In this document: positions 4,384 to 15,800 of the stretch, one piece after another
How positions within the stretch are numbered: the first letter of the stretch is position 1
How the letters are laid out: each line of letters begins with the position of its first letter
Translations under genes and position numbers: made by a program
The notes under the pieces: generated by a model
Seen by the model: the letters and a program-made list of their open reading frames with translations, nothing else
What the model was told of the DNA's origin: nothing
Database searches by the model: none
Origin: a virus
IMG/VR virus record: IMGVR_UViG_3300045988_101895
Reading direction: 5' to 3' (one strand)
Length of the DNA stretch: 39,041 bases

Positions 4384-5034
4384 TTACTTTAACAGCAGTT
4401 TCAGCAGAATCATGAGCGCCACGATGATCCCAGCCGCGATGATCTTGTCCTTTTTCTGTTTTTCTTTTTTCTCGGCTTCCGCCTGTTTCCGCGCCGCTTC
4501 GGCGCGTTTTTCGGCTTCCGCCCGGTCTTGGATCGCGGCGCGGGCACGCGCGGCTCTGGCCTCTCTTTCCCGGTCGACGATCTCTTGTCTTTTGGCTTTT
4601 TCCAGATCCTCTTTGTGTTTCTCGTCGTATTCCTTTTTTTCCTCGTCGGTCGCCAGAAAGCGCATCACGAGACGCGCGCCGAAGTTGAGTCTTTCGCCGT
4701 CCGCGTCCGTCCCTCCGCCTGACACTTCAAAGCAGCTGACCCCGGCGTATCTGTCCCAGTGGGACAGGACAAAGGGCAGCTCCGTTTTCGGCACATAGCC
4801 GACCATTTCCGGCTCCTCGCCGCCGCGCACCCAGATCTCGACCGCCGGTTGACCCTCAAACTCCGTCAGCTTCGGCCCCACGTCCCGCTCGGCGCTAAAG
4901 CTGTCGTATGGCTCGTCCTCCCAGTAGATCCTCCGCAGGATGGTTTGACGTGACCGACGGCCATTTTTGTGCGTTACTCCCGCAACGTGCATTTCGCAGT
5001 AAAGACAGTTGTCCCTGTACCCGATCAGTGGCAT
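4384..5034 (-). CDS. HIRAN-domain protein with K/E/R/A-rich coiled-coil linker and C-terminal membrane anchor
   Basis: N-terminal HVAGVTHKNGRRSRQTILRRI...EMVGYVPKTELPFVLSHWD resembles the HIRAN fold signature. Residues ~130-195 are a charged helix (EKAKRQEIVDREREARAARARAAIQDRAEAEKRAEAARKQAEAEKKEKQKK). The C-terminus IIAAGIIVALMILLKLLLK is hydrophobic. RBS AGGGAGGAC. Confidence 0.55.
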   Translation of the reverse strand: MPLIGYRDNCLYCEMHVAGVTHKNGRRSRQTILRRIYWEDEPYDSFSAERDVGPKLTEFEGQPAVEIWVRGGEEPEMVGYVPKTELPFVLSHWDRYAGVSCFEVSGGGTDADGERLNFGARLVMRFLATDEEKKEYDEKHKEDLEKAKRQEIVDREREARAARARAAIQDRAEAEKRAEAARKQAEAEKKEKQKKDKIIAAGIIVALMILLKLLLK

Positions 5035-6060: not shown

Positions 6061-7623
6061 ATGAAAGCTGTTATCTACGCCCGTTACTCCTCGGAGAAGC
6101 AGCAGGAGATCAGCATCGAGGGGCAGCTCCGGGTCTGTCAGGAGTTCGCGGCACGGGAGGGCTACGAGGTCGTGGACACGTACACCGACCGCGCCCTGTC
6201 CGCCAGCCGGGACGTGGAGCGCCGGGAGGATTTCCAGCGGATGATCCGGGACAGCAGCCGCCGGGGCTTTGACGTGGTCATCGTCTACAAGTTCAGCCGA
6301 TTCGCCCGGAATCGGTACGACAGTGCCGTCTACAAGGCCCGACTCCGGCAGAACGGCGTGAAGGTGGTCAGCGCGTGCGAGCCCATCAGCGCCAACCCGG
6401 AGGGCGCGCTGATCGAGGGCATTTTTGAGAGCCTCGACGAGTTCTATAGCAAGTCGTTGGCACAGGACGTGACGAGAGGAATGCACGAGAACGCCACCAA
6501 GGCCCTGTCCACCGGCGGCACCATCCCGCTTGGCTATGTGTCCGTTGATAAGCGGCTACAGATCGACCCGGCCACCGCGCCCGCCGTCCGGCTGGCCTTT
6601 GAGCGCTACGCCGATGGCATGAGCCTCGCCCGGATCGCGGACGAGCTGAACGCGCAGGGCTATCGCACCCGGGCCGGGAAGGCGTTCAACCGCTCGTCCT
6701 TTAACGCCCTGCTATCCAACAGGAAGTACATCGGCACCTATCATTATAATGGCGAGGTGGAGCTGGTGGGGCAAGTCCCGCCCATCGTCGACCCCGGCAC
6801 CTTCCGCCGTGTACAGGAGCGGCTCCGCAAAAACACGACGGCCCCCGGGCGCACCAAGGCCACGATCAATTACCTCCTGAGCACGAAGCTCTACTGTGGC
6901 GCGTGCGGCAAGCCCATGGCGGGGGAGAGCGGCCACAACCACTCCGGGACGCGGTACTACTACTACGCGTGCAGCGGGCGCAAGCGCCGCCTCGGGTGCA
7001 AGATGCCCACCCTCCGCAAGGACGACTTGGAGCGGCTGGTGGTGGAGCACGCCCGGGCGCTGTTAAGCCCGGGCAACATCAAGGCACTGGCCCACGCCGC
7101 CGCGGCTGAATATCAGCGTCAGGCCGAGGACGACAGCGCCGCCGTGTCCCTCCGCCGCCAGTTGGACGAGGTGACGCGCTCGCTGGACAACCTCCTGCGC
7201 ATGGTGGAGCAGGGCGCGGTCTCCGCCACGCTGGTGGGGCGCATCAACGAGCTGGAGGGGCGCAAAGCCAGCATCGCCGCCGAGCTGGCCGATGAGCAGC
7301 GCGGCGCGCCCGAGCTGACGGAGGTGGATATCCTGCGGTGGTTATCCTGTTTTGCGGATGGGTGTTTGGAGGATGAGGACTATATGCGGAATGTCATTGA
7401 TATGCTGGTGAATAAGATCGTGGTACAACAAAACCCGAACCAGAAGGTCTCTATCCTCGTGGCCTACAATCTGGCGGGCCGTGGGGATGAGATTTCTGGT
7501 TCGGGTTTGGTGGATGTGGTACACCAAGCCCGGCATAATCCGAACCTTTGCACCAGAGCAACGGAGTCTTGCATGACTTTCCTATTATATCATGGATGCG
7601 CGATATTTCAACTGGCGTCGTAA
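6061..7623 (+). CDS. int: large serine recombinase (phage integrase)
   Basis: MKAVIYARYSSEKQQEISIEGQ carries the catalytic Ser motif of the resolvase domain. It is followed by a recombinase domain, a zinc ribbon (CGACGKPM...YYYYACSGRKRRLGC) and a coiled coil. Length is 520 aa. Confidence 0.9.
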   Translation: MKAVIYARYSSEKQQEISIEGQLRVCQEFAAREGYEVVDTYTDRALSASRDVERREDFQRMIRDSSRRGFDVVIVYKFSRFARNRYDSAVYKARLRQNGVKVVSACEPISANPEGALIEGIFESLDEFYSKSLAQDVTRGMHENATKALSTGGTIPLGYVSVDKRLQIDPATAPAVRLAFERYADGMSLARIADELNAQGYRTRAGKAFNRSSFNALLSNRKYIGTYHYNGEVELVGQVPPIVDPGTFRRVQERLRKNTTAPGRTKATINYLLSTKLYCGACGKPMAGESGHNHSGTRYYYYACSGRKRRLGCKMPTLRKDDLERLVVEHARALLSPGNIKALAHAAAAEYQRQAEDDSAAVSLRRQLDEVTRSLDNLLRMVEQGAVSATLVGRINELEGRKASIAAELADEQRGAPELTEVDILRWLSCFADGCLEDEDYMRNVIDMLVNKIVVQQNPNQKVSILVAYNLAGRGDEISGSGLVDVVHQARHNPNLCTRATESCMTFLLYHGCAIFQLAS

Positions 7624-7656: not shown

Positions 7657-8322
7657 CTATTTGCGGACGATATAGCGCAGATAGCGCTCGACCTTGTCCG
7701 GCTGTGCGTCCGAGTCTCGGATGAAGTCGGCGGCCATATCGGCGTAGAAATCCGGGCTGTGGATGCCGTAGCGCTTTGCCGTGGCGGCGTAATCGCTGTA
7801 CATGGCGTTGGCCACCGCGTAGAAGGCCCAGAACTCCGGGCCGTCGGTGGGAAAGCCCTCCTTTTGCGCCAGAGGTTTCAGCGCTTCGGGCGACCACTTG
7901 CCGCCGCGGGGATGGTTGGGATCCGTCCCCTCCATGCTCTGCACCCAGCGCATGGCCGACTCTTGGTCGATCTCGCCGGTTTCTTCCTCCGCCGCTGTGG
8001 GGGAGTCCATCCAGACCGTGCCGGTGGCCTTGATAGCCGTTGGCTTGTGATCGTCCGCGCGAATCATGCCGCCGTCGTAGTGGGCGGCTCCGAATCCGAG
8101 GCGGCCTCCGTCATAGAGACCCGCCCGTGGCGGCTCCGTGTAGTCCGGCTGATGCCGATAGGGATCCGCCGTCATGCGGCGCTCCATCGGGTAGCCGTAG
8201 GCCTCCGTGCGCCGCTCTTCCGGCCAGTCGCGTTCCCTCCGTCTGCGAGTCTCCTCCGGGCGGCGTTCCTCCTCTCCCTCCTCGCGGGGGCGGGTGAGCA
8301 TCCTCATGGTGATACCATTCAC
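7657..8322 (-). CDS. hypothetical protein (221 aa), last gene of the accessory cassette
   Basis: GTG start at 8322, preceded by AGGAGGTGGCACGAC, forming a GTGA overlap with the upstream stop. The N-terminus is R/E-rich and the C-terminus (GPEFWAFYAVANAMYSDYAATAKRYGIHSPDFYADMAADFIRD) looks globular. Confidence 0.55.
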   Translation of the reverse strand: MNGITMRMLTRPREEGEEERRPEETRRRRERDWPEERRTEAYGYPMERRMTADPYRHQPDYTEPPRAGLYDGGRLGFGAAHYDGGMIRADDHKPTAIKATGTVWMDSPTAAEEETGEIDQESAMRWVQSMEGTDPNHPRGGKWSPEALKPLAQKEGFPTDGPEFWAFYAVANAMYSDYAATAKRYGIHSPDFYADMAADFIRDSDAQPDKVERYLRYIVRK

Positions 8323-8726
8323 GTCGTGCCACCTCCTGCCTCAGTGGCGGGAGCCGTCCCGTTGATGGACTCAAGGGCGTTGTTCGGCGCGCAAGCCGGG
8401 CGGCCCAGCAAGCGGAACGTCCCGCCGGTGGCCGTGGTGACGACGACGGTAGAGTACTTGGTGCGCGTGCGGATGCCGCAGGCCGTTACCTGTGCGCAGT
8501 TGCACTTTGTCAGCGGGTACTGGGCCGTCCCCGTGCCGATGGTGACGACTACGGGCGCGTTGATGGTGGCGGTGTCCGGGATGGACTGAGCCACAACGAT
8601 ACAGTACTTCTGACCGTCTCTGTAGTTCCCCGCCGGGAGGTTGATGGTCAGCGTCCCGCCCGCGAAGGTGACCGCCTGAGAGATCACCAGCCGGTCACAG
8701 AGCCGACAAACAGTTTTACAGGCCAT
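8319..8726 (-). CDS. hypothetical Cys-containing beta-rich protein (135 aa)
   Basis: The start MACKTVCRLCDRLVISQAVTFAGGTLTINLPAG is chosen for its spacing from AAAGGAA. ATG 8735 is an alternative. The protein is T/V/A-rich. Confidence 0.5.
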   Translation of the reverse strand: MACKTVCRLCDRLVISQAVTFAGGTLTINLPAGNYRDGQKYCIVVAQSIPDTATINAPVVVTIGTGTAQYPLTKCNCAQVTACGIRTRTKYSTVVVTTATGGTFRLLGRPACAPNNALESINGTAPATEAGGGTT

Positions 8727-8745
8727 GATGTTCATTCCTTTCTCA

Positions 8746-8767
8746 GGGGCGGGATTACTCCCGCCCC
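8746..8767 (-). other. strong intercistronic hairpin GGGGCGGGA-GTAA-TCCCGCCCC
   Basis: A 9-bp GC stem between the 242-aa and 135-aa genes. No U-run follows, so it is more likely an attenuator or processing/stability element than a terminator. Confidence 0.5.
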
Positions 8768-8788
8768 GAATTGTCACCCTTACGGGGA

Positions 8789-9517
8789 TCAGCAGCAGCC
8801 GCAGCCGTTATAGCCCGAGTTACAGCCGCAGCCGGCCACGCGGTTGATGATCCGGTTGGTCTCCTGGCTCATCACGCCCGCCAGATAGTTGTTCTGGTTG
8901 GCCTGACTGGCCGCCAGCTTGAGAGACTGGTTCTCGTCCTGTAGGGTCGCCAGCTTGTCCTGCGTCAGGAAATCCAGCACGGCGCGGGTACCGGCGTTCT
9001 GCGCGTCGATGATATCCCGGGCCGCCGTCTGGACGGTGTTGCGGGTGTCGCACGCCTGCGTCGCCATGTTGTAGTTGATGTCCGCGAAGCCCCGCTCCAT
9101 CTGGCGCTGGGTCTCACAGCAGCACTGCTGATTGGCCGCGCCCATGGTGTAGAGCTGGTGCATGAGGGCCGCCTGCTGGTTGGAACGAGAAAGCTCCGCC
9201 TGAGCAAAGCCGTTGGCCATGCTTTGCTGAACACCGTTTACCAGCTGAGCCTGAGCATAGAGGCCGTCGCAGAGTCCGTTGTTGACTCCGTCGATCTTCC
9301 GTTCGATGTTTGCAAAGTCGCTGGTGAGGACGTAGCCGTCCATCGCCGAGCCCTGTCCGCCCCGGTTACCGCCGAAGCCGCCGTTACCCCAGCCAAACAG
9401 CAGGGCAAAGACCACGATGATCCAGAGCCAGTTTCCATCGCCGAACATCCCGTTGGAGTTGTTTCGGCCCTCGCTTACGCCTACCGCGTAGCCGCTGGAA
9501 AAATCATTATCCGCCAT
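8789..9517 (-). CDS. hypothetical membrane protein, Q/N-rich helical region, Cys-rich C-terminus
   Basis: RBS AAGGAGCGATAACACT. TM segment WLWIIVVFALLFGW is followed by GNGGFGGNRGG. It contains an internal CCC triplet and the C-terminus GCGCNSGYNGCGCC. Confidence 0.6.
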   Translation of the reverse strand: MADNDFSSGYAVGVSEGRNNSNGMFGDGNWLWIIVVFALLFGWGNGGFGGNRGGQGSAMDGYVLTSDFANIERKIDGVNNGLCDGLYAQAQLVNGVQQSMANGFAQAELSRSNQQAALMHQLYTMGAANQQCCCETQRQMERGFADINYNMATQACDTRNTVQTAARDIIDAQNAGTRAVLDFLTQDKLATLQDENQSLKLAASQANQNNYLAGVMSQETNRIINRVAGCGCNSGYNGCGCC

Positions 9518-9575
9518 AGTGTTATCGCTCCTTATCTTATATTCGCAGCGCGGGCCGCGCGCTCCCGCGGGTGCT

Positions 9576-9797
9576 TCATGATCTGATACCCAGACCCCGG
9601 AGGATCGCCTCCGGGCTCGTCCCCCGCTCCCGGGCCATGTTCTCCGCCATCCGGCGCAGCTGGTCGGGAGTCTTACCCTGTACCATTTTGAGGGCTTGGG
9701 CCATCATGGGGTCATTCCCGGCCAGCTGGCTGAGGATCTGGATGGGGTCGCCGCCGCCCTGTGCGGCCTGCAAAAGCATCATGATGGGGTTATTCAT
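9576..9797 (-). CDS. hypothetical small helical protein (73 aa)
   Basis: MNNPIMMLLQAAQGGGDPIQILSQLAGNDPMMAQALKMVQGKTPDQLRRMAENMARERG. Its start overlaps the upstream stop by 8 nt. Confidence 0.55.
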   Translation of the reverse strand: MNNPIMMLLQAAQGGGDPIQILSQLAGNDPMMAQALKMVQGKTPDQLRRMAENMARERGTSPEAILRGLGIRS

Positions 9798-10212
9798 CCG
9801 TCGCCGCCTCCTTCTGAGCGCGGCGGCGCGTCTTGAGCGCGTCGATCTGGCCCGTCAGCTCCGCCACCTGATCCCGCAGGGCCTTCACGTCGCTCTCCAG
9901 CGCGTAGGCCTCCGGGGCCTCTGTTTTGGGCTCTGGCCGGGCGACCCGCCGGTACTCCGCAAAATCGGTCTGGCCCGTCTGGCTGTTAAACAGCTTGGTG
10001 TAGATCGCGCCGTGGCTCACGTCCGGGAAGATCATCAATCCGCCCATGAAATCCACCGGCACGCCCAGCGCCTCCTCCCGGCTGGTGACCATGCGCCCGC
10101 TGAGGCCGCTCTGGGCCTGTTGGGCGGGCTGATAGGCGGGCTGTTGATACGCCGCCTGATACATGGGCGGCTGGTAGGTCTGTGGCATTTGGTAGGGTGG
10201 GAAATTCGCCAT
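9790..10212 (-). CDS. hypothetical protein with P/Q/Y-rich N-terminus and C-terminal coiled coil
   Basis: Track ORF 9790..10314. The start MANFPPYQMPQTYQPPMYQAAYQQPAYQPAQQ at 10212 follows GAAGGGAGCGTGAAAAC. Confidence 0.55.
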   Translation of the reverse strand: MANFPPYQMPQTYQPPMYQAAYQQPAYQPAQQAQSGLSGRMVTSREEALGVPVDFMGGLMIFPDVSHGAIYTKLFNSQTGQTDFAEYRRVARPEPKTEAPEAYALESDVKALRDQVAELTGQIDALKTRRRAQKEAATDE

Positions 10213-10277
10213 GTTTTCACGCTCCCTTCTGGGGATATCTTCCCACAGAAGGGGAGAGAGCGCCATGAAAGGAAGGG

Positions 10278-10308
10278 GCAAATTTCGGGCAAGCCCGCCG
10301 CAAATTTC
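10278..10308. promoter_or_regulatory. two 9-bp direct repeats GCAAATTTC flanking a small hairpin
   Basis: The repeats are at 10278-10286 and 10300-10308, 22 bp start to start, around GGGC-AA-GCCC. They lie upstream of the minus-strand cassette. Confidence 0.35.
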
Positions 10309-10332
10309 ATGCAACTTTTTTCAAAAAAAGTG

Positions 10333-10361
10333 TTGACATAATACGCAATGCGTATTATAAT
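10333..10361 (+). promoter_or_regulatory. perfect consensus promoter TTGACA-17 bp-TATAAT containing a 21-bp palindromic operator
   Basis: -35 at 10333-10338 and -10 at 10356-10361. The palindrome ATAATACGCA-A-TGCGTATTAT spans 10338-10358. The leader CACGTAATCAAGAG at 10365-10378 is identical to 3877..3864. Confidence 0.8.
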
Positions 10362-10422: not shown

Positions 10423-10695
10423 ATGGATAGCAAGATCACCACCAACATCAACCGCAACTACTACATCATCGGCGGACAGTATGAGACCTGCTGCTACGGA
10501 GCCAGCGATACCCTCCGCGGCGCTAAGTGCATCGCCACCCGCAACCGCGAATACTGGGATAACTGGCAGGGCTGGCACAAGCCCAACATCTACAAGGCGG
10601 ACGACGTGCAAGTCATCATCAGCCGCGGCCGCATCACCACGCCGGACGGCTGGGAAGTCATCGTACCCAAGCCCGACGCCGTGCCGGTCTGCTGA
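10423..10695 (+). CDS. hypothetical protein (90 aa)
   Basis: RBS GGAGATAGAGACC. Translation begins MDSKITTNINRNYYIIGGQYETCCYGASDTLRGAKCIATRNREYWDNWQGW. It is the first gene of the plus-strand block. Confidence 0.6.
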   Translation: MDSKITTNINRNYYIIGGQYETCCYGASDTLRGAKCIATRNREYWDNWQGWHKPNIYKADDVQVIISRGRITTPDGWEVIVPKPDAVPVC

Positions 10696-10834
10696 CCATA
10701 CCACAAGCCCCCGCCGGACGGGCCAAAGCCCGGCAAAAAAGGCGAAACGATCGCCGACAGCGTCACGGCCAATGGAAATGTCCGATATTATGTCGAAGAA
10801 TCCTACAATCAGCCGCCAAATCTGATGAACCATC

Positions 10835-10862
10835 TGGAAACACGGAAACTCCATGCTATAAT
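10835..10862 (+). promoter_or_regulatory. possible internal promoter with extended -10 (TGcTATAAT)
   Basis: TG at 10854-10855 and TATAAT at 10857-10862. The -35 (TGGAAA) is weak. Confidence 0.35.
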
Positions 10863-10887
10863 GTACTCACTGGAAGGGAGATATACT

Positions 10888-11061
10888 ATGAGCCCGAACG
10901 ATCTGATAAAAGCCGCGGTAGCCGTGGCACAGCAAAACGGCGCAACCGGCGAACAGGTTGCACAAGTGGAAATCGCCATCCAATATCTGACTAACCCGGA
11001 CTTCCGCGCAGCGTTAGAGGATTATGTCTTCCACGCAACTTATCAACCCAAAACCATCTAA
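10888..11061 (+). CDS. hypothetical small protein (57 aa)
   Basis: Track ORF 10825..11061. The start MSPNDLIKAAVAVAQ follows GGAAGGGAGATATACT. Confidence 0.5.
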   Translation: MSPNDLIKAAVAVAQQNGATGEQVAQVEIAIQYLTNPDFRAALEDYVFHATYQPKTI

Positions 11062-11087
11062 CACACAGCAAAAAGGAGGAAGTAAAA

Positions 11088-11357
11088 ATGACTTACAATC
11101 ATTACCCGCAGAATCTCTGGACTCCCGATGATGTTAAAGATATGGTCAACGATTGGCTGCTGGAGAATAATGACGAGATAACCGATCTCGTCATTGATGG
11201 CGAGCCGTATTACGAGCCTGACAGCTGGCAGCCGGACGGGGATCCGCATTGCGAGCATGGATGCTGGCAGCAGGACGACCATGATGACAAGTGTCGTTAC
11301 ACGCTTGTTGCCGACGCTGATGGCAACATTCAAATATATTACGGTGCTACATTGTGA
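11088..11357 (+). CDS. hypothetical strongly acidic protein (89 aa)
   Basis: RBS AAAAGGAGGAAGTAAAA. The protein is D/E-rich (DDVKDMVNDWLLENNDEITDLVIDGEPYYEPDSWQPDGDPHCEHGCWQQDDHDD). This stretch is visibly AT-richer than its flanks. Confidence 0.6.
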   Translation: MTYNHYPQNLWTPDDVKDMVNDWLLENNDEITDLVIDGEPYYEPDSWQPDGDPHCEHGCWQQDDHDDKCRYTLVADADGNIQIYYGATL

Positions 11358-11400
11358 TGAGGTTCCGCCCCGAAGGTCACGAGGGCAGAAGGAGGACACG

Positions 11401-11649
11401 ATGGGAACCAACGCGACAAAAGAAACACTGACCCGGGAGGCATGGGAAGCACTTACCGCCGGGGAGCGTCGAAGTGTGCTGAAGGTCGAGCAGGCCAAGG
11501 AATACAGCGGCCTGCGTGCCTATCCCACCACCTGCCGCCGGGTGATGGAGCGTATCCCGGAGGACTGGTGGGGCAGGTACACCGCCGAGCACATCGGCCA
11601 GGTCATGCGGCTGCTTCATCAGGCCTATTCCGACGGCAAAAACGATTAA
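11401..11649 (+). CDS. hypothetical protein (82 aa)
   Basis: The start MGTNATKETLTREAWEALTAGERRSVLK follows GAAGGAGGACACG. Confidence 0.6.
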   Translation: MGTNATKETLTREAWEALTAGERRSVLKVEQAKEYSGLRAYPTTCRRVMERIPEDWWGRYTAEHIGQVMRLLHQAYSDGKND

Positions 11650-11662
11650 GGAGGACTGACCC

Positions 11663-12010
11663 ATGACTTTCCAAGACTTCCACCGGCTCTACATCGACGC
11701 GAGCGAGTGCGACACCGCCGAACTCTTCATGGCGGAGTGCGGCGGCTCCGTCGACTTCGCCAGCCCGGAGGACGCAGTGCGCATCCTGACGGCCATTCAC
11801 GCCATCGTTCACGGCGGCGGCGACTTTCGCGCCATCGCGGGTGCCTGCGGCCTGTCTATTCGCGGTCTTGCGCTGCGTCTTAACATCCCGGAGCGGACGG
11901 CCACCTGCTGGACGGCTAACTCTGACAGCAACCACCGCACGGCCTCCCCTTGGGCGCTGCAGCTGATCGCCTACGCCGCCGTCAACTCCATGGAGGCTGA
12001 CGATGTCTAA
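11663..12010 (+). CDS. hypothetical protein (115 aa), possible HTH
   Basis: RBS TAAGGAGGACTGACCC. Contains IAGACGLSIRGLALRLNIPERTA. It ends with the GATGTCTAA stop-start overlap. Confidence 0.6.
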   Translation: MTFQDFHRLYIDASECDTAELFMAECGGSVDFASPEDAVRILTAIHAIVHGGGDFRAIAGACGLSIRGLALRLNIPERTATCWTANSDSNHRTASPWALQLIAYAAVNSMEADDV

Positions 12011-13025
12011 GCGCCGCTATAAGTGCTGGGTGCTTCGCTCTCCCACCGGCGACCTGTACAGGACGGATTCCATCAGCGACTTTGTCAAGGCTCACCCGGA
12101 CGAGTTTCCCAACGCCCCGTTCGCCATACATCAGTTCTATTCCTGCGGAGTTTACGGCTGGGATGTGGTCTCCCGCCAGACGGAGGACGGGGAGCTTGTT
12201 CTGCCGCCCCACCACCAAAACCGCACCTTCTGGACGCTTCTCTCCCCCTCCGGGGAGGTCTACGGCGCGGCCAATCTTACCCAGTTTCTTTTAGACCACC
12301 CGGAGGATTTCCCAAATCCGTCCGCCGCCTCCTGCGCCTTTACACAGGCCTCCGGCACGACCCGCACCGTCTGCGGCTGGTCAGTGCTCCCCAATCCTGT
12401 CTCCTCCGCCCAAATCACCACGTGGCGCAAATGGCGCTGTTACAAGCTCCTGACCTGCAGCGACTGCGGCAGGGAATACACCGGGCATATCAAGACCATC
12501 CGCTGCCCTGAGTGTCAGGCAGAAGCCGACCGCAGGCATAACGCGGAGTATCGTCAGCGCAAGCTGGCCGGGCAGGCGCGGGAGATCGGCAGCACGGCGA
12601 TCTGCGAGCGGTGCGGGGCGGCGTATACCGTGGAATCGGGCCTGCAGCGCTATTGTAAGGCCTGCGCCCCCGCCGCCATCAAGGAGCAGCGCAACCAAAG
12701 CTCCCGCGAGTGGAATCAGGCCGCCTATGCCGACCAGGGGAAGCGGGACGGCAAGAACGAGGCCCGCCGGGTCGTTCCTCTGCCGCATACCTGCACCGTC
12801 TGCGGCAAGACGTTTTACTCGACCGGCGAACCTCTCTACTGCTCCGAGGATTGCCGCCAGAAGGCCCGGAAGGAATATCAGACCCGCTACGATCAGGAGC
12901 GGCGGGATAAGCGCCGGGAGGACGCAAAGGCCCGCTACGCCAAACTTACGCCGGAGGAAAAGGAACAGCGCAACGCAAAGGCCCGCGAGCGCTACGCCAA
13001 ACGAAAGGAGACGCACGATGTCTAA
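12003..13025 (+). CDS. multi-zinc-ribbon protein, paralog 1 (340 aa): two N-terminal W-L-SP-G-Y modules, three CxxC pairs, basic repeat tail
   Basis: MSKRRYKCWVLRSPTGDLYRTDSISDFVKAHPDEFPN and FWTLLSPSGEVYGAANLTQFLLDHPEDFPN form an internal duplication. The CxxC pairs are CSDCG..CPEC, CERCG..CKAC and CTVCG..CSEDC. The tail reads RYAKLTPEEKEQRNAKARERYAKRKE. Confidence 0.7.
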   Translation: MSKRRYKCWVLRSPTGDLYRTDSISDFVKAHPDEFPNAPFAIHQFYSCGVYGWDVVSRQTEDGELVLPPHHQNRTFWTLLSPSGEVYGAANLTQFLLDHPEDFPNPSAASCAFTQASGTTRTVCGWSVLPNPVSSAQITTWRKWRCYKLLTCSDCGREYTGHIKTIRCPECQAEADRRHNAEYRQRKLAGQAREIGSTAICERCGAAYTVESGLQRYCKACAPAAIKEQRNQSSREWNQAAYADQGKRDGKNEARRVVPLPHTCTVCGKTFYSTGEPLYCSEDCRQKARKEYQTRYDQERRDKRREDAKARYAKLTPEEKEQRNAKARERYAKRKETHDV

Positions 13026-14058
13026 TCGCCGCTACAAGTACTGGGTGCTTCGCTCGCCTTCCGGCGATCTCTACAGGACATACTCCCTCAGCGACTTTGT
13101 TAAGGCGCACCCGGAGGAATTCCCCAACGCAAAAGTCGCCGTCCATGGGCTCTACATTGGAAGCGCGGCAAGCGGCTGGATAGTCGTGTACCGGCAAACC
13201 ATGGACGGAGAGATGATCGCTTCGCCGCCCAAGAAAAATCGCAATTTCTGGACGCTTCGTTCCCCCTCCGGGGAAGTCTACGGGGTCTCCAATCTCAGGC
13301 AGTTCCTCCGCGATCATCCAGAGGATTTCCCAAACATCGACACCGCCGCCAGCGCCTTTACTCAGGTCACTGGCACCGCCCGCACCGTCCGTGGCTGGTC
13401 AGTTCTCCCCGACTCGGAGACCTCTGCTAAAGTCTCCACATGGAGCCCAGTTCCCTTTTGCCGCGACTGCGGCCGCGAACTTACCGGGCACATTAGGGTG
13501 ACCCGCTGCCCGGAGTGCCAGAAGGAGGCCAACCGCAGGAATAACGTGGAATACCGCCAGCGCAAGAGAGACGGGAAAGTTCGGGAGATCGGCAGCACGG
13601 ACATCTGCGAGGCGTGCGGCGGAAAATACACCGTGGAATCCGGCTCGCAACGCTACTGTAAGGCGTGCGCCACCGCCGTTGTCCGGGAGAACTGCAGCAA
13701 AAAGTCCCGTGAGCAGAAAATGGCCGTCCTGAACGAGCGCAGCCGGGCCGTCCCCCTTCCGCATACCTGCACCGTCTGTGGCAAGGAATTTTACGCCATC
13801 GGCAAGCCGCTATACTGTTCCGAGGGCTGTCGCCAGAAGGGCAAGAAGCAATACAAGATCCAGTATGATCTGTCGCGGAAGGAAAAGCACCGGGAGTACG
13901 ACAAAAAGCGCTACGCCCAGCGCACCCCGGAGCAAAAAGAACAGCGCAACGCAAAGGCCCGCGAGCGTTGGGCGAATCGCACCCCGGAGCAGATAGAAAA
14001 ACGCAAGGTTCAGGCTCATGAGCGCTACTTGAGGAAAAAAAATAACGCCGGGGAATAA
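13018..14058 (+). CDS. multi-zinc-ribbon protein, paralog 2 (346 aa)
   Basis: Collinear with paralog 1 (MSNRRYKYWVLRSPSGDLYRTYSLSDFVKAHPEEFPN...). It has the same ATGTCTAA junction with the preceding gene. Confidence 0.7.
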   Translation: MSNRRYKYWVLRSPSGDLYRTYSLSDFVKAHPEEFPNAKVAVHGLYIGSAASGWIVVYRQTMDGEMIASPPKKNRNFWTLRSPSGEVYGVSNLRQFLRDHPEDFPNIDTAASAFTQVTGTARTVRGWSVLPDSETSAKVSTWSPVPFCRDCGRELTGHIRVTRCPECQKEANRRNNVEYRQRKRDGKVREIGSTDICEACGGKYTVESGSQRYCKACATAVVRENCSKKSREQKMAVLNERSRAVPLPHTCTVCGKEFYAIGKPLYCSEGCRQKGKKQYKIQYDLSRKEKHREYDKKRYAQRTPEQKEQRNAKARERWANRTPEQIEKRKVQAHERYLRKKNNAGE

Positions 14059-14076
14059 TCCCCGGCGTTGGTTTTT
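14044..14076. terminator. bidirectional rho-independent terminator
   Basis: AACGCCGGGGA-ATAA-TCCCCGGCGTT forms an 11-bp stem. The A-run at 14034-14042 precedes it and TTTTT (14072-14076) follows. The stop codon of paralog 2 lies in the loop. Confidence 0.8.
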
Positions 14077-14272: not shown

Positions 14273-14725
14273 TTAGCCCTCCGCGGCCTCGGCAGGATCG
14301 GCAGCGGAGGCTTCCTCAGGCGGTTTCGTCTTCTCCCCGGAGGCGAGCTGCTTCAAATCGAGCTGTTTCCACGCGGCTTTCAGCGCGTCCAAGACGACCT
14401 CCGATTCGATGTTAAATCCCATATCTTTCATTCTGTTTAAAGCATATGCCCATTTGTCTTCCCCGAGATACCGGCCCAGCATGGCTTCCGCGGCTTCCAC
14501 GGCGATCTTCGCCGCGTCGATCATATCCCGCTTCTCCAGCCACGGGCGCACGTAGCGCATCCATACCCGCGCCAGCAGGGCGGACATAGCCGCCGCCAGC
14601 GCGCCGATGATCGAGACGACCACCTGCGTCCAATCCACCTGTTTTAGGATGCTTTCCTCCGCCAGCGCCCAGACGGGCGTGAGCAGGAGCACCAGTGCCA
14701 GCAACCATACCATGATCTTCCTCAT
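14273..14725 (-). CDS. holin, LL-H-like family
   Basis: N-terminal TM segments (VWLLALVLLLTPVWALA and VVVSIIGALAAAMSALLARVW) are followed by AAKIAVEAAEAMLGRYLGEDKWAYALNRMKDMGFNI, typical of LL-H holins. It sits in the lysis cassette. Confidence 0.6.
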   Translation of the reverse strand: MRKIMVWLLALVLLLTPVWALAEESILKQVDWTQVVVSIIGALAAAMSALLARVWMRYVRPWLEKRDMIDAAKIAVEAAEAMLGRYLGEDKWAYALNRMKDMGFNIESEVVLDALKAAWKQLDLKQLASGEKTKPPEEASAADPAEAAEG

Positions 14726-15086: not shown

Positions 15087-15800
15087 TCATCCTTGTACCA
15101 AAAACCGCGACATCATCCACCCCGTCCGCCGGATTCCGTCGGTGCACAGCGCCGTGATCTGTGACCATTCCTCGCCCGGCTGGCGGATAGTAACAGGTGT
15201 GTCGCTCCGCACGTGCCAGTACAGGTTTTCGCCCTGACTGGGCTTGTTCCGCAGCTTCACGGGCAGACCGTTTTCGGCGTACACGGTGGCCTCCGTCATG
15301 GGGCCTAATGGTTCCACCGGCTGGGGAGCGCTTTCCGCCTCCCACGGGCTGGCCCAGTGCGTCCACGGGTAATCCCTGACCGGCTGATGCACCACGCCGT
15401 AGGCCGTACCCCTGGCATGGACGCAGGTGCCGTCCCCCAGCGCAAGGCCGGTGTGCTGCATGATGGAGCCTTTCTGGCGGTACAGGTACACCACCTCGCC
15501 CTCCGGCAGGCTGTCGATGGTGCCCTTGCGCTTCCACGGGCCTTTCCGCCACTGGCTGGTGGCCCCGCTGGGCAGCTCCACCCCCGCCGCCTTGGCGGAA
15601 AAGCGGGTCAGTTGGGCGCAGTCCCACACAGGCCGCCCGTCCCACTTGGCCCCGGTGACAAGGATGTTCTGGGCCTGATCGGGGTATTGGGCTGCCTGCT
15701 GCCGCCGGAAGGCCGCTGTGCACGTCTGGCCCTTGGCCCCGTAGATATACCCCTGTCCGATCTTCGACCGGGCAAAGGCAGCAGCTCTCTCGCCGGTCAT
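15087..15800 (-). CDS. endolysin: NlpC/P60 peptidase with C-terminal SH3-like domain
   Basis: GYIYGAKGQ...WDCAQL (catalytic Cys)...HTGLALGDGTCVHA (His) mark the peptidase. The C-terminal ATVYAENGLPVKLRNKPS...GWMMSRFL is SH3b-like. Confidence 0.8.
   Translation of the reverse strand: MTGERAAAFARSKIGQGYIYGAKGQTCTAAFRRQQAAQYPDQAQNILVTGAKWDGRPVWDCAQLTRFSAKAAGVELPSGATSQWRKGPWKRKGTIDSLPEGEVVYLYRQKGSIMQHTGLALGDGTCVHARGTAYGVVHQPVRDYPWTHWASPWEAESAPQPVEPLGPMTEATVYAENGLPVKLRNKPSQGENLYWHVRSDTPVTIRQPGEEWSQITALCTDGIRRTGWMMSRFLVQG

Follow-up and report, generated by a model that had tools for sequence, protein, structure and literature searches.

The window analysed here is the whole stretch of 39,041 nucleotides of virus DNA deposited as IMG/VR record IMGVR_UViG_3300045988_101895. 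It contains an operon in which a consensus promoter is followed by four small ORFs, a gene for an XRE-type HTH protein (hereafter the partner), two longer genes (ORF A and ORF B), and an intrinsic terminator (Table 1). ORF A and ORF B are collinear paralogs, with 62% identity across 335 residues (BLASTP, E 2e-152) and DNA-level repeats of 72-80% identity that span their entire length. The junction GATGTCTAA is seen twice (12002-12010 and 13017-13025), and both times the stop codon (TAA) of one gene overlaps the start codon (ATG) of the gene that follows; the original prediction of a paralogous pair with a duplicated 5' junction is thus borne out. The longest open frame for ORF B is 12727..14058 (443 aa), but this extension depends solely on an in-frame ATG further upstream, and the start at 13018 is backed by homologs and by an AAGGAG ribosome-binding site. 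Both genes are intact and under purifying selection, with dN/dS values of 0.29 between ORF A and ORF B, 0.13 between ORF A and its ortholog, and 0.12-0.24 within domains, in keeping with the expectation that neither copy is a decaying pseudogene. A DNA search of a phage collection with the 2-kb region as query gave no match.

Table 1. Features of the operon, with positions in the window.
Feature	Position	Strand	Remark
Operon promoter, TTGACA-17 nt-TATAAT	10333..10361	+	12/12 consensus positions
Perfect 10-1-10 palindrome, ATAATACGCA-A-TGCGTATTAT (21 bp), putative operator	10338..10358	.	In promoter spacer, overlaps -10 element
Small ORFs (10423..11649)	10423-10695, 10825-11061, 11088-11357, 11401-11649	+	Variable 'cargo' part
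XRE-type HTH partner, 115 aa	11663..12010	+	Stop overlaps ORF A start; matches phrog_25567
ORF A	12003..13025	+	340 aa
ORF A modules	12027-12167 and 12231-12386	+	aa 9-55 and 77-128
ORF A zinc ribbons 1-2 core	12456-12665	+	
ORF A ribbon 3 (treble-clef type)	12792-12854	+	
ORF A basic helical tail	12855-13022	+	
ORF B	13018..14058	+	346 aa
ORF B modules	13042-13185 and 13249-13404	+	aa 9-56 and 78-129
ORF B ribbons 1-2 core	13459-13668	+	
ORF B ribbon 3	13768-13830	+	
ORF B basic tail, two 19-aa repeats	Repeats start 13909 and 13966	+	Ends NAGE
Bidirectional intrinsic terminator	14043..14070	.	Strong; G+C-rich stem of 12 bp, with runs of T on both strands

In each protein, two N-terminal modules precede three ribbons and a Lys/Arg-rich tail. 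The ribbons are present as foreseen but are not all of the form CxxC...CxxC, the third being CxxC...CxxxC (YCSxxC, treble-clef/FCS type); the Cys pairs of ORF A are 152/155, 168/171, 201/204, 218/221, 264/267, and 280/284, with equivalents in ORF B. The tail does carry the RYA..TPE unit, although this is repeated in ORF B (two units) and single in ORF A, together with a repeated, bZIP-like hairpin motif (RN.KARERYAKRK). This zinc-ribbon/tail half holds 46-51 K+R versus 26-29 D+E (net charge +17 to +25), and its AF2 model (pLDDT 94.4) consists of three ribbon-plus-long-helix units and a terminal helical hairpin. The ribbons presumably bind zinc. As judged from sequence comparison, the zinc-ribbon core and basic tail form a large unnamed family, with 672 representatives when the threshold is E<=1e-3 and at least 776 clusters when it is E<=1e-5, in which the 12 Cys are all invariant or nearly so. 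The family occurs on phages and mobilisable elements whose hosts are Bacillota of the gut and rumen. Its members have 0 to 6 extra AcrVA3-like modules (see below), and some are fused to DNA-binding domains (XRE HTH, an HTH_17-like excisionase-type HTH, AP2). The nucleic-acid-binding role originally suggested is plausible given the charge and these fusions, and ORF A and ORF B are probably non-enzymatic proteins of this kind, with DNA as the likely ligand.

For the zinc-ribbon core, we found no homolog that has been characterised. When its model was compared with the PDB by Foldseek, no global match was significant, and the single local match was that of ribbon 3 (CxxCGKxF...YCSxxC plus helix) to YacG (TM 0.65, 41 residues, E 0.94); the matches to Hpy99I, CTCF, and ribosomal zinc ribbons were dismissed (probability <=0.23). 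The Pfam family DZR_2 (PF18912), pre-assigned to some members of the zinc-ribbon family, scored 13.9 and 17.1 bits against a cut-off of 27, and DUF2116 (PF09889) was seen in relatives, at sub-threshold scores only. The Pfam matches to Ecl1 and NDUF_C2 reflect chance resemblance to YCSxxC and HPEDFPN. Besides these and PHROG 1271, the searches of Pfam, NCBIfam, PHROGs, and PADLOC with both proteins returned only sub-threshold zinc-ribbon noise. An HNH motif that might be concealed in ribbon 1 (CxxC-12-CxxC plus His) lacked Pfam support and was rejected because a beta-beta-alpha-metal finger requires a longer spacing. Our literature search on zinc-ribbon anti-CRISPRs in Clostridia prophages retrieved nothing relevant.

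The N-terminal modules number two per protein, as predicted, but they measure ~50 aa with a period of 68 aa instead of ~75 aa. For these modules, the statement that no named family could be recognised does not hold: profile and model comparisons indicate that they are homologs of AcrVA3 and of the DNA-binding modules that recur within homing endonucleases. The module profile retrieves AcrVA3 (9kja_A) with hmmsearch (E 5e-5) and hhalign (9KJA, 96.3% probability), and the AF2 model of the modules (pLDDT 77) matches 9kja with a Foldseek probability of 0.99 (TM 0.53, rmsd 2.9 A). I-HmuI takes rank 3 in this structure search. In BFVD, a library of predicted viral structures, the Foldseek matches are mostly homing endonucleases and NUMOD-type proteins, the best of them the homing endonucleases of Bacillus phages Grass and Moonbeam (E 8e-5 and 1e-4), with numerous HNH/NUMOD proteins behind them. 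A sequence search of ORF A against the PDB gave nothing under E 0.1, and only two fragments were recovered when the short module profile was used in a word-indexed search. Homology to a characterised family had been named beforehand as an outcome that would speak against the original prediction; the modules show such homology.

Neither protein has a nuclease domain over the cut-offs of Pfam, NCBIfam, or PADLOC, and HNH, GIY-YIG, LAGLIDADG, and other nuclease families are absent from the Pfam matches even at E<=10 and from those of NCBIfam. The match to PHROG 1271 ('HNH endonuclease') is limited to profile positions 115-260, the middle of this profile, which is matched by the zinc-ribbon/tail part of ORF A and ORF B. 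AcrVA3 itself reportedly acts on dsDNA, not on Cas12, and resembles the DNA-binding part of I-HmuI (PMC13001698); its nuclease activity was described in a single in vitro study that used at least 2 uM of protein, and it has no catalytic motif. The basic patch that AcrVA3 reportedly uses (R50, R58, K59, K64, K88, K93) is mostly unconserved in the modules of ORF A and ORF B: the insert bearing R58/K59/K64 is missing, K93 is replaced in ORF A, and an acidic HPE(D/E)FPN loop takes the place of the patch. The N-terminal half of ORF A is also net acidic. Hence, these modules may bind protein rather than DNA.

The prediction that ORF A and ORF B close a counter-oriented operon under a consensus promoter is confirmed (Table 1), the promoter being of sigma-70 type, and equivalent near-consensus promoters lie upstream of other zinc-ribbon/HTH operons (loci L001, L002, L006, L010, L012, L014, L018, L021, L024, L028, L030-L032, and L035). 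The palindrome is unique in the window even when 3 mismatches are allowed (0 matches expected), and it is kept in L018-L021. Distant loci have analogous centred palindromes, whose half-site varies together with helix 3 of the partner HTH: TATCW goes with ATACGCA, and TIEDW with CCACGCA. Because operator and recognition helix change together, the regulation is directly testable. The partner probably represses the promoter at the palindrome, and acr promoters are described as carrying inverted repeats over the -10 element (bioRxiv 10.64898/2026.07.27.740549). Between the promoter and the first gene, no structured leader RNA was detected, the hairpin being no better than shuffled sequence (z -0.35), and the single Rfam match is sub-threshold and falls on the terminator. 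The terminator stem encodes the final residues of ORF B, NAGE, an ending that is found in related operons on whichever gene comes last (P0001, P0004, P0007, P0011/12, and the 142-aa HTH protein of L006).

Homologs of the partner adjoin the zinc-ribbon gene, upstream or downstream, in many loci (L001, L002, L012, L014, L018-21, L024-26, L028, L032, L035, and L044), and members of the partner family reach the Pfam HTH_3 cut-off. The partner is fused to the zinc-ribbon protein in L031, and HTH fusions are also found in P0019/P0022. When genome loci were picked by the zinc core alone, via a tight core alignment, 9 of 28 had the partner adjacent, near, or fused, and 19 had no recognisable partner nearby. 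The HTH and zinc-ribbon genes are constant at the 3' end of the cassette, and the small ORFs upstream of them differ among relatives, their families being shuffled among related cassettes. The zinc-ribbon gene behaves as a constant part of the cassette and not as swappable cargo. It is present in one or two copies in close relatives; thus, the pair is not obligatory. The four small ORFs of the window received no function from Pfam, PHROG, or PADLOC; the third (11088-11357) is very acidic (21 D/E versus 3 K/R).

The cassette occupies the accessory region between integrase and lysis genes, which is where prophages keep defence genes. Elsewhere, short two-ribbon forms of the family adjoin housekeeping genes in Selenomonas.

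Taking together the architecture, homologies, gene linkage, promoter and operator design, and purifying selection described above, we infer that ORF A and ORF B are enzyme-free nucleic-acid-binding proteins of an autoregulated, acr-aca-like accessory cassette, with a role in counter-defence or in establishment of the element (probability of about 45%). The dimer of the partner HTH would bind the palindromic operator and shut the very strong promoter after a burst of expression, like Aca proteins at acr promoters. ORF A and ORF B would bind nucleic acid without catalysis, most probably dsDNA, along the basic ribbon-helix array, and their N-terminal modules would supply a second recognition surface, for DNA or protein. 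The purpose would be counter-defence or element establishment through the occupation or masking of DNA, akin to the DNA-centred action reported for AcrVA3, and the second gene copy could provide a second specificity. The anti-defence cargo originally proposed fits the design of the operon (strong promoter, operator, co-encoded HTH, variable small acidic ORFs) and the link to AcrVA3. Anti-defence proteins are usually narrow in distribution and swappable. The zinc-ribbon gene, in contrast, has a wide distribution and is conserved together with the regulator, which suits a regulatory role at least as well as an anti-defence one.

Such a role is the core of the first alternative, which we regard as a serious if somewhat unlikely one. 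Here, the zinc-ribbon protein and its XRE partner would make up a two-component, Aca-like regulator, the ribbon protein binding DNA or the mRNA leader beside the HTH dimer, and the payload would be the variable small, mostly acidic ORFs upstream. This would account for the co-conservation of the two genes in either order or as fusions, and for their constant 3' position, the place of aca genes, behind variable ORFs; regulators are the conserved genes of acr operons (bioRxiv 10.64898/2026.07.27.740549). Some family members also lie just upstream of late/terminase genes (one upstream of terminase in L016) or adjoin a sigma-factor-like gene, positions that are typical of regulators. However, a co-repressor of 340 aa that carries 0 to 6 extra AcrVA3-like modules and comes in tandem copies would be elaborate, the HTH dimer alone accounts for the single palindrome, and the partner is not recognisable near the zinc-ribbon gene in the majority of the 28 genome loci.

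A toxin-antitoxin, abortive-infection, or exclusion module that the prophage expresses is improbable. The XRE protein would then serve as both antitoxin and repressor, with the basic zinc-ribbon protein as the toxin, acting, for example, by blocking gyrase or coating the nucleoid, as might be suspected from a translationally coupled gene pair that is putatively autoregulated through an operator inside the promoter, from the accessory integrase-lysis region (with a PemK/SocA pair nearby in L005), and from the likeness of ribbon 3 to the zinc finger of YacG, an inhibitor of gyrase. Yet this likeness concerns 41 residues of a generic treble clef, PADLOC gave no match for either paralog, the partner, or any of the four small ORFs, gene order varies and fusions occur, one 'antitoxin' would face two 'toxin' copies, and the operon holds several further ORFs.

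We consider it very improbable that the proteins are accessory factors of a phage integrase, i.e., a recombination directionality factor or an architectural protein of att sites. A large serine recombinase is indeed encoded a few kb away in the window and in L001, L002, L006, and L050, and homologs in Paenibacillus phages are annotated as 'TnpX site-specific recombinase', but near-identical cassettes lie beside a tyrosine integrase in L018 and L019, and the family also adjoins relaxase/MobC genes and is found in a phage with ParA and no integrase nearby. Moreover, the window's own serine recombinase has no BLASTP similarity to ORF A or ORF B, and the TnpX label has no resolvase domain behind it, both resolvase catalytic and recombinase domains being absent from the two proteins in Pfam. 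Finally, functionless, decaying remnants of homing endonucleases would explain a domain repertoire equal to that of such enzymes minus the nuclease, and frameshifted ORF B-type variants occur in other assemblies (P0008 and P0023), but this deserves hardly any credence given two intact copies, low dN/dS, zinc ligands all kept across hundreds of clusters, and a conserved partner and promoter design.

The preferred reading, counter-defence or element establishment by DNA-binding proteins, can be taken one step further, tentatively and as a somewhat unlikely extension. The zinc-ribbon protein and its XRE partner, expressed from a consensus promoter that has a palindrome at its centre, might represent a cassette not described before and widespread among the mobile elements of gut Bacillota. 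Its array of AcrVA3-type modules and ribbon-helix units would neutralise the defences of the host through the binding or masking of DNA or of a defence protein, not by direct nuclease inhibition, and tandem shuffled copies would widen the range of targets. Independently of this, the analysis defines a large unnamed family, currently mis-annotated as 'HNH endonuclease' or 'TnpX recombinase', which has a conserved partner and a conserved promoter and operator design. The cassette also flags accessory loci in gut bacteria that are hard to culture, and the variable small acidic ORFs of these loci are promising candidates for new anti-defence genes.

Among known systems, the small treble-clef fingers of the YacG/DUF2116/FCS type and Pfam DZR_2 resemble one part of ORF A and ORF B. 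Ribbon 3 superposes on YacG, and DZR_2, DUF2116, and Ecl1 are detected sub-threshold, but the match covers one small ribbon only, all Pfam scores are under the curated cut-offs, and the GyrB-binding tail of YacG is not evident. Homing endonucleases (the C-terminal region of I-HmuI, NUMOD-type modules, MobE, phage HNH or 'intron-associated' endonucleases) likewise string tandem small DNA-binding modules on linkers. In contrast to them, ORF A and ORF B have no HNH, GIY-YIG, or other nuclease domain, their genes are neither in nor beside a homing target gene, and their zinc-ribbon core is a conserved independent family. The likeness to acr-aca operons lies in the very strong promoter whose -10 element is covered by an inverted repeat, the small HTH regulator within the operon, the variable small genes upstream, and the accessory region by the lysis genes. 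The differences are that a second large protein is conserved beside the HTH, that the latter belongs to no recognised Aca family, as far as this can be tested, and that the AcrVA3-like modules are the sole link to an Acr. AcrVA3, from mobile elements of Moraxella bovoculi (PDB 9KJA; PMC13001698), differs in being a free-standing single module of ~110 aa, with a 15-residue insert and a basic patch where ORF A and ORF B have the acidic loop, whereas these fuse two modules to a 200-aa zinc-ribbon region. It shares with each of their modules the profile W.L..P.G..Y...NL..F ... GW and a beta-beta-alpha-alpha-beta fold, and all are encoded in small operons on mobile elements. AcrVA3, a poorly understood anti-CRISPR, thereby gains a family context: it seems to be a single, free-standing version of a module that gut Clostridia phages assemble in series on a zinc-ribbon scaffold.

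ORF A and ORF B align from end to end with 62% identity (E = 2e-152; 72-80% identity at the DNA level), follow a GGAG-type ribosome-binding site in both cases, and start at the same ATGTCTAA stop/start overlap, which bears out the original prediction of tandem collinear paralogs with a duplicated 5' junction. Each protein carries two N-terminal modules of consensus W.L.SP.G..Y...(N/S)(L/I)..F...HP(E/D)(E/D)FPN...GW, six Cys pairs, and a basic repeat tail. The two predicted modules are thus present in both proteins, with a core of about 50 aa and a period of 68 aa instead of the expected ~75 aa. The three predicted ribbons correspond to the six Cys pairs, except that the third is CxxC...CxxxC (YCSxxC) and not CxxC...CxxC. 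A 443-aa call for ORF B is an artefact of an in-frame ATG further upstream.

Coordinates of the features in the window and of palindromes at homologous loci (L numbers)
Feature	Position	Strand	Remarks
Large serine recombinase	6061-7623
DUF7841 protein	7657-8322	-
PHROG 16490 protein	8789-9517	-
Promoter	10333-10361		12/12 consensus; operon start
Perfect 10-1-10 palindrome, putative operator	10338-10358		in promoter spacer; unique in window
Operon	10423-14058	+	between integrase and lysis genes; converges on lysis genes
ORF A	12003-13025	+	340 aa
ORF B	13018-14058	+	346 aa
Bidirectional terminator	14043-14070		operon end
Holin	14273-14725
NlpC/P60 lysin	15087-15800
Palindrome, L001	4502-4522
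Palindrome, L012	5623-5637
Palindrome, L024	about 4547-4567
Palindrome, L032	about 1389-1409

The zinc-ribbon half belongs to a large family without a name. An exhaustive HMMER search retrieved 672 representatives (E<=1e-3), nearly all aligned only over residues about 147-300, and none of the 776 clusters found by a profile search (E<=1e-5) has a name. The typical member has about 230 aa, four ribbons, and a conserved C-terminal motif (AMTPEE..YR..NA.ARENYKKRKE); every Cys ligand is invariant or almost invariant, as are several Arg, Gly, Gln, and Tyr positions. The labels currently attached to the family, "HNH endonuclease" (PHROG 1271, Blautia phage Montmirail) and "TnpX site-specific recombinase" (Paenibacillus larvae phages), look like mis-annotations. 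No nuclease or other enzyme domain was detected in either ORF. The AF2 model of this half (pLDDT 94.4) shows three units, each a ribbon plus a long helix, and ends in a helical hairpin; Foldseek found no global match to it in the PDB, and only ribbon 3 could be superposed, on the zinc finger of YacG. The half is rich in basic residues (46-51 Lys and Arg vs 26-29 Asp and Glu), and the domains fused to family members (XRE HTH, excisionase-type HTH, AP2) are each DNA-binding. ORF A and ORF B would bind nucleic acid without catalysis, via this basic ribbon-helix array. In Paenibacillus phage BN12 (L008, 4851-5684), the zinc-ribbon gene and the gene before it are in the same frame, a stop codon and one codon apart, and a tblastn match to ORF A spans both; here the gene may be split or read through.

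The view that the proteins match no named family fails for the N-terminal modules. A profile of 23 modules matched one PDB sequence, 9kja_A (E = 5e-5; hhalign probability 96.3%), and the AF2 model of residues 1-145 (pLDDT 77; beta-beta-alpha-alpha-beta in each module) matched 9KJA with Foldseek (probability 0.99, TM 0.53, rmsd 2.9 A), I-HmuI being the third match. 9KJA is the anti-CRISPR AcrVA3, reported to be a monomer, to look like the DNA-binding part of I-HmuI, and to act on dsDNA without binding Cas12 (PMC13001698). We treat its nuclease activity with caution because it was claimed from assays done in vitro with at least 2 uM protein, and the protein has no catalytic motif (PMC13001698). 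Since the same model matches almost exclusively homing endonucleases and NUMOD-type proteins in BFVD (predicted viral protein structures), the modules belong to a class of homing-endonuclease-associated modules, of which AcrVA3 is a free-standing example. Yet the basic patch of AcrVA3 is largely absent from ORF A and ORF B, which have an acidic HPE(D/E)FPN loop instead, and the N-terminal half of ORF A is net acidic; these modules may therefore recognise protein and not DNA. The module is mobile: among close homologues its copy number is zero, one, or two, a 690-aa protein has six (five retrieved by the motif scan), and one protein lacking zinc ribbons has 4-5.

The 115-aa gene 5' of ORF A encodes an XRE-type HTH protein, whose homologues in many independent loci adjoin the zinc-ribbon gene directly, either upstream or downstream of it and in most cases with an overlap. 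In a genome scan of 28 loci chosen by the zinc-ribbon core alone, this partner was adjacent, near, or fused in nine; in L031 the two form a single polypeptide, and in L044 the third adjacent gene encodes an AcrVA3-like module protein. The small ORFs upstream vary, as several unrelated, mostly acidic families are shuffled among cassettes, and the 3' end of the operon, with the HTH and zinc-ribbon genes, stays constant. One of them (11088-11357; 89 aa, 21 Asp/Glu vs 3 Lys/Arg) contains a 39-nt tandem duplication (repeat 11196-11273) and has homologues in L006, L021, L050, and L051; it matched no family and is a candidate DNA mimic or protein of the anti-restriction type. Another neighbour that recurs beside zinc-ribbon genes is a very acidic protein of ~140 aa (HEATH_29 family), found in a Paenibacillus phage, two MAG loci, and Blautia phage Montmirail (L009 4160-4585, L028 4528-4977, L031 5287-5727, L011 631-963). 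In a related phage (L001 5259-5957), an extra gene between partner and zinc-ribbon gene encodes a 232-aa protein with two LTG.RFG.L.V...C.CDCG modules and an AP2-like domain, another homing-endonuclease-type DNA-binding protein without nuclease.

The operon does start at a consensus promoter, as had been proposed, and in at least 10 other loci from unrelated assemblies the zinc-ribbon/partner operons follow a near-consensus promoter that likewise has a centred palindrome. The palindromes are of the types CCAC(G/T)CA-N-TG(C/A)GTGG or ATACGCA-N-TGCGTAT, and half-site and partner helix 3 appear to vary together: ATACGCA occurs with TATCW, CCACGCA with TIEDW and SVEDW, and CCACTCA with TVENW and SAENW. 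This covariation points to the partner as an autorepressor, which would gate an expression burst of the operon. The terminator stem doubles as coding sequence for the final NAGE of the last gene, whatever that gene is. Because this ending occurs on differing, non-homologous last genes of related operons (ORF B, P0001, P0004, P0007, P0011/12, and the 142-aa HTH gene of L006), gene ends appear to have been recombined at the terminator.

By analogy with AcrVA3 and given the operon design, our tentatively preferred reading is a payload for counter-defence or establishment, which would work on DNA (probability about 45%). The main rival, which we regard as rather unlikely, takes the small acidic ORFs as the payload and the zinc-ribbon protein as a co-regulator with the partner. 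A toxin-antitoxin or exclusion function fits the data less well and is improbable.

The window resembles a temperate phage genome, and the placement of the cassette relative to integrase and lysis genes is common to distant homologues in L001, L002, L006, and Paenibacillus and Blautia phages. An accessory factor of the integrase is a very doubtful role and a poorer fit, as near-identical cassettes adjoin a tyrosine integrase in L018/L019, so that the cassette does not go with one type of integrase. That integrase (L018/L019 1-221) lies at the place equivalent to the serine recombinase, with accessory and lysis regions almost the same, indicating that the integration module was swapped. Four or five minus-strand genes between integrase and operon (7657-10314) are kept in L001, L006, L018, and L050. 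Neighbours in other genomes include relaxase, NikA, MobC, and SSB genes, and the family is therefore carried by mobile elements generally. The hosts are Oscillospiraceae, Lachnospiraceae, Ruminococcus, Selenomonas/Veillonellaceae, and Erysipelotrichales.

Both genes are under purifying selection. The dN/dS is 0.29 between ORF A and ORF B, whose split is old (dS 0.83), 0.13 between ORF A and a 94% identical orthologue, and 0.12-0.24 inside modules and ribbons, with relaxation only in linkers. Judged from these sequence comparisons, both copies are functional genes; that they are remnants of a dead homing endonuclease fits poorly and is the least likely reading of all. The pair is optional: the two do not always co-occur, close phage relatives having a single copy (343 or 380 aa; L018-L021) or other pairings (340+380 in L050, 339+357 in L051/52), and wherever there are two, the A-type gene is first. 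ORF B-type genes are frameshifted in two other assemblies (P0008, on a 39,059-bp contig, and P0023), where either the second copy is being lost in some lineages or the assemblies are in error. One of these frameshifts is a 1-nt deletion after ...CTVCGKEFY, equivalent to about 13793 in the window.

Each part of the system is already known in kind, namely the homing-endonuclease/AcrVA3 modules, the zinc ribbons, and the acr-aca-like layout of the operon. In the libraries and literature searched, no description turned up of their combination, of how large the unnamed family of zinc-ribbon proteins is, or of its conserved partner and operator. The predicted autorepression by the partner follows the logic by which Aca proteins are described as controlling acr promoters.
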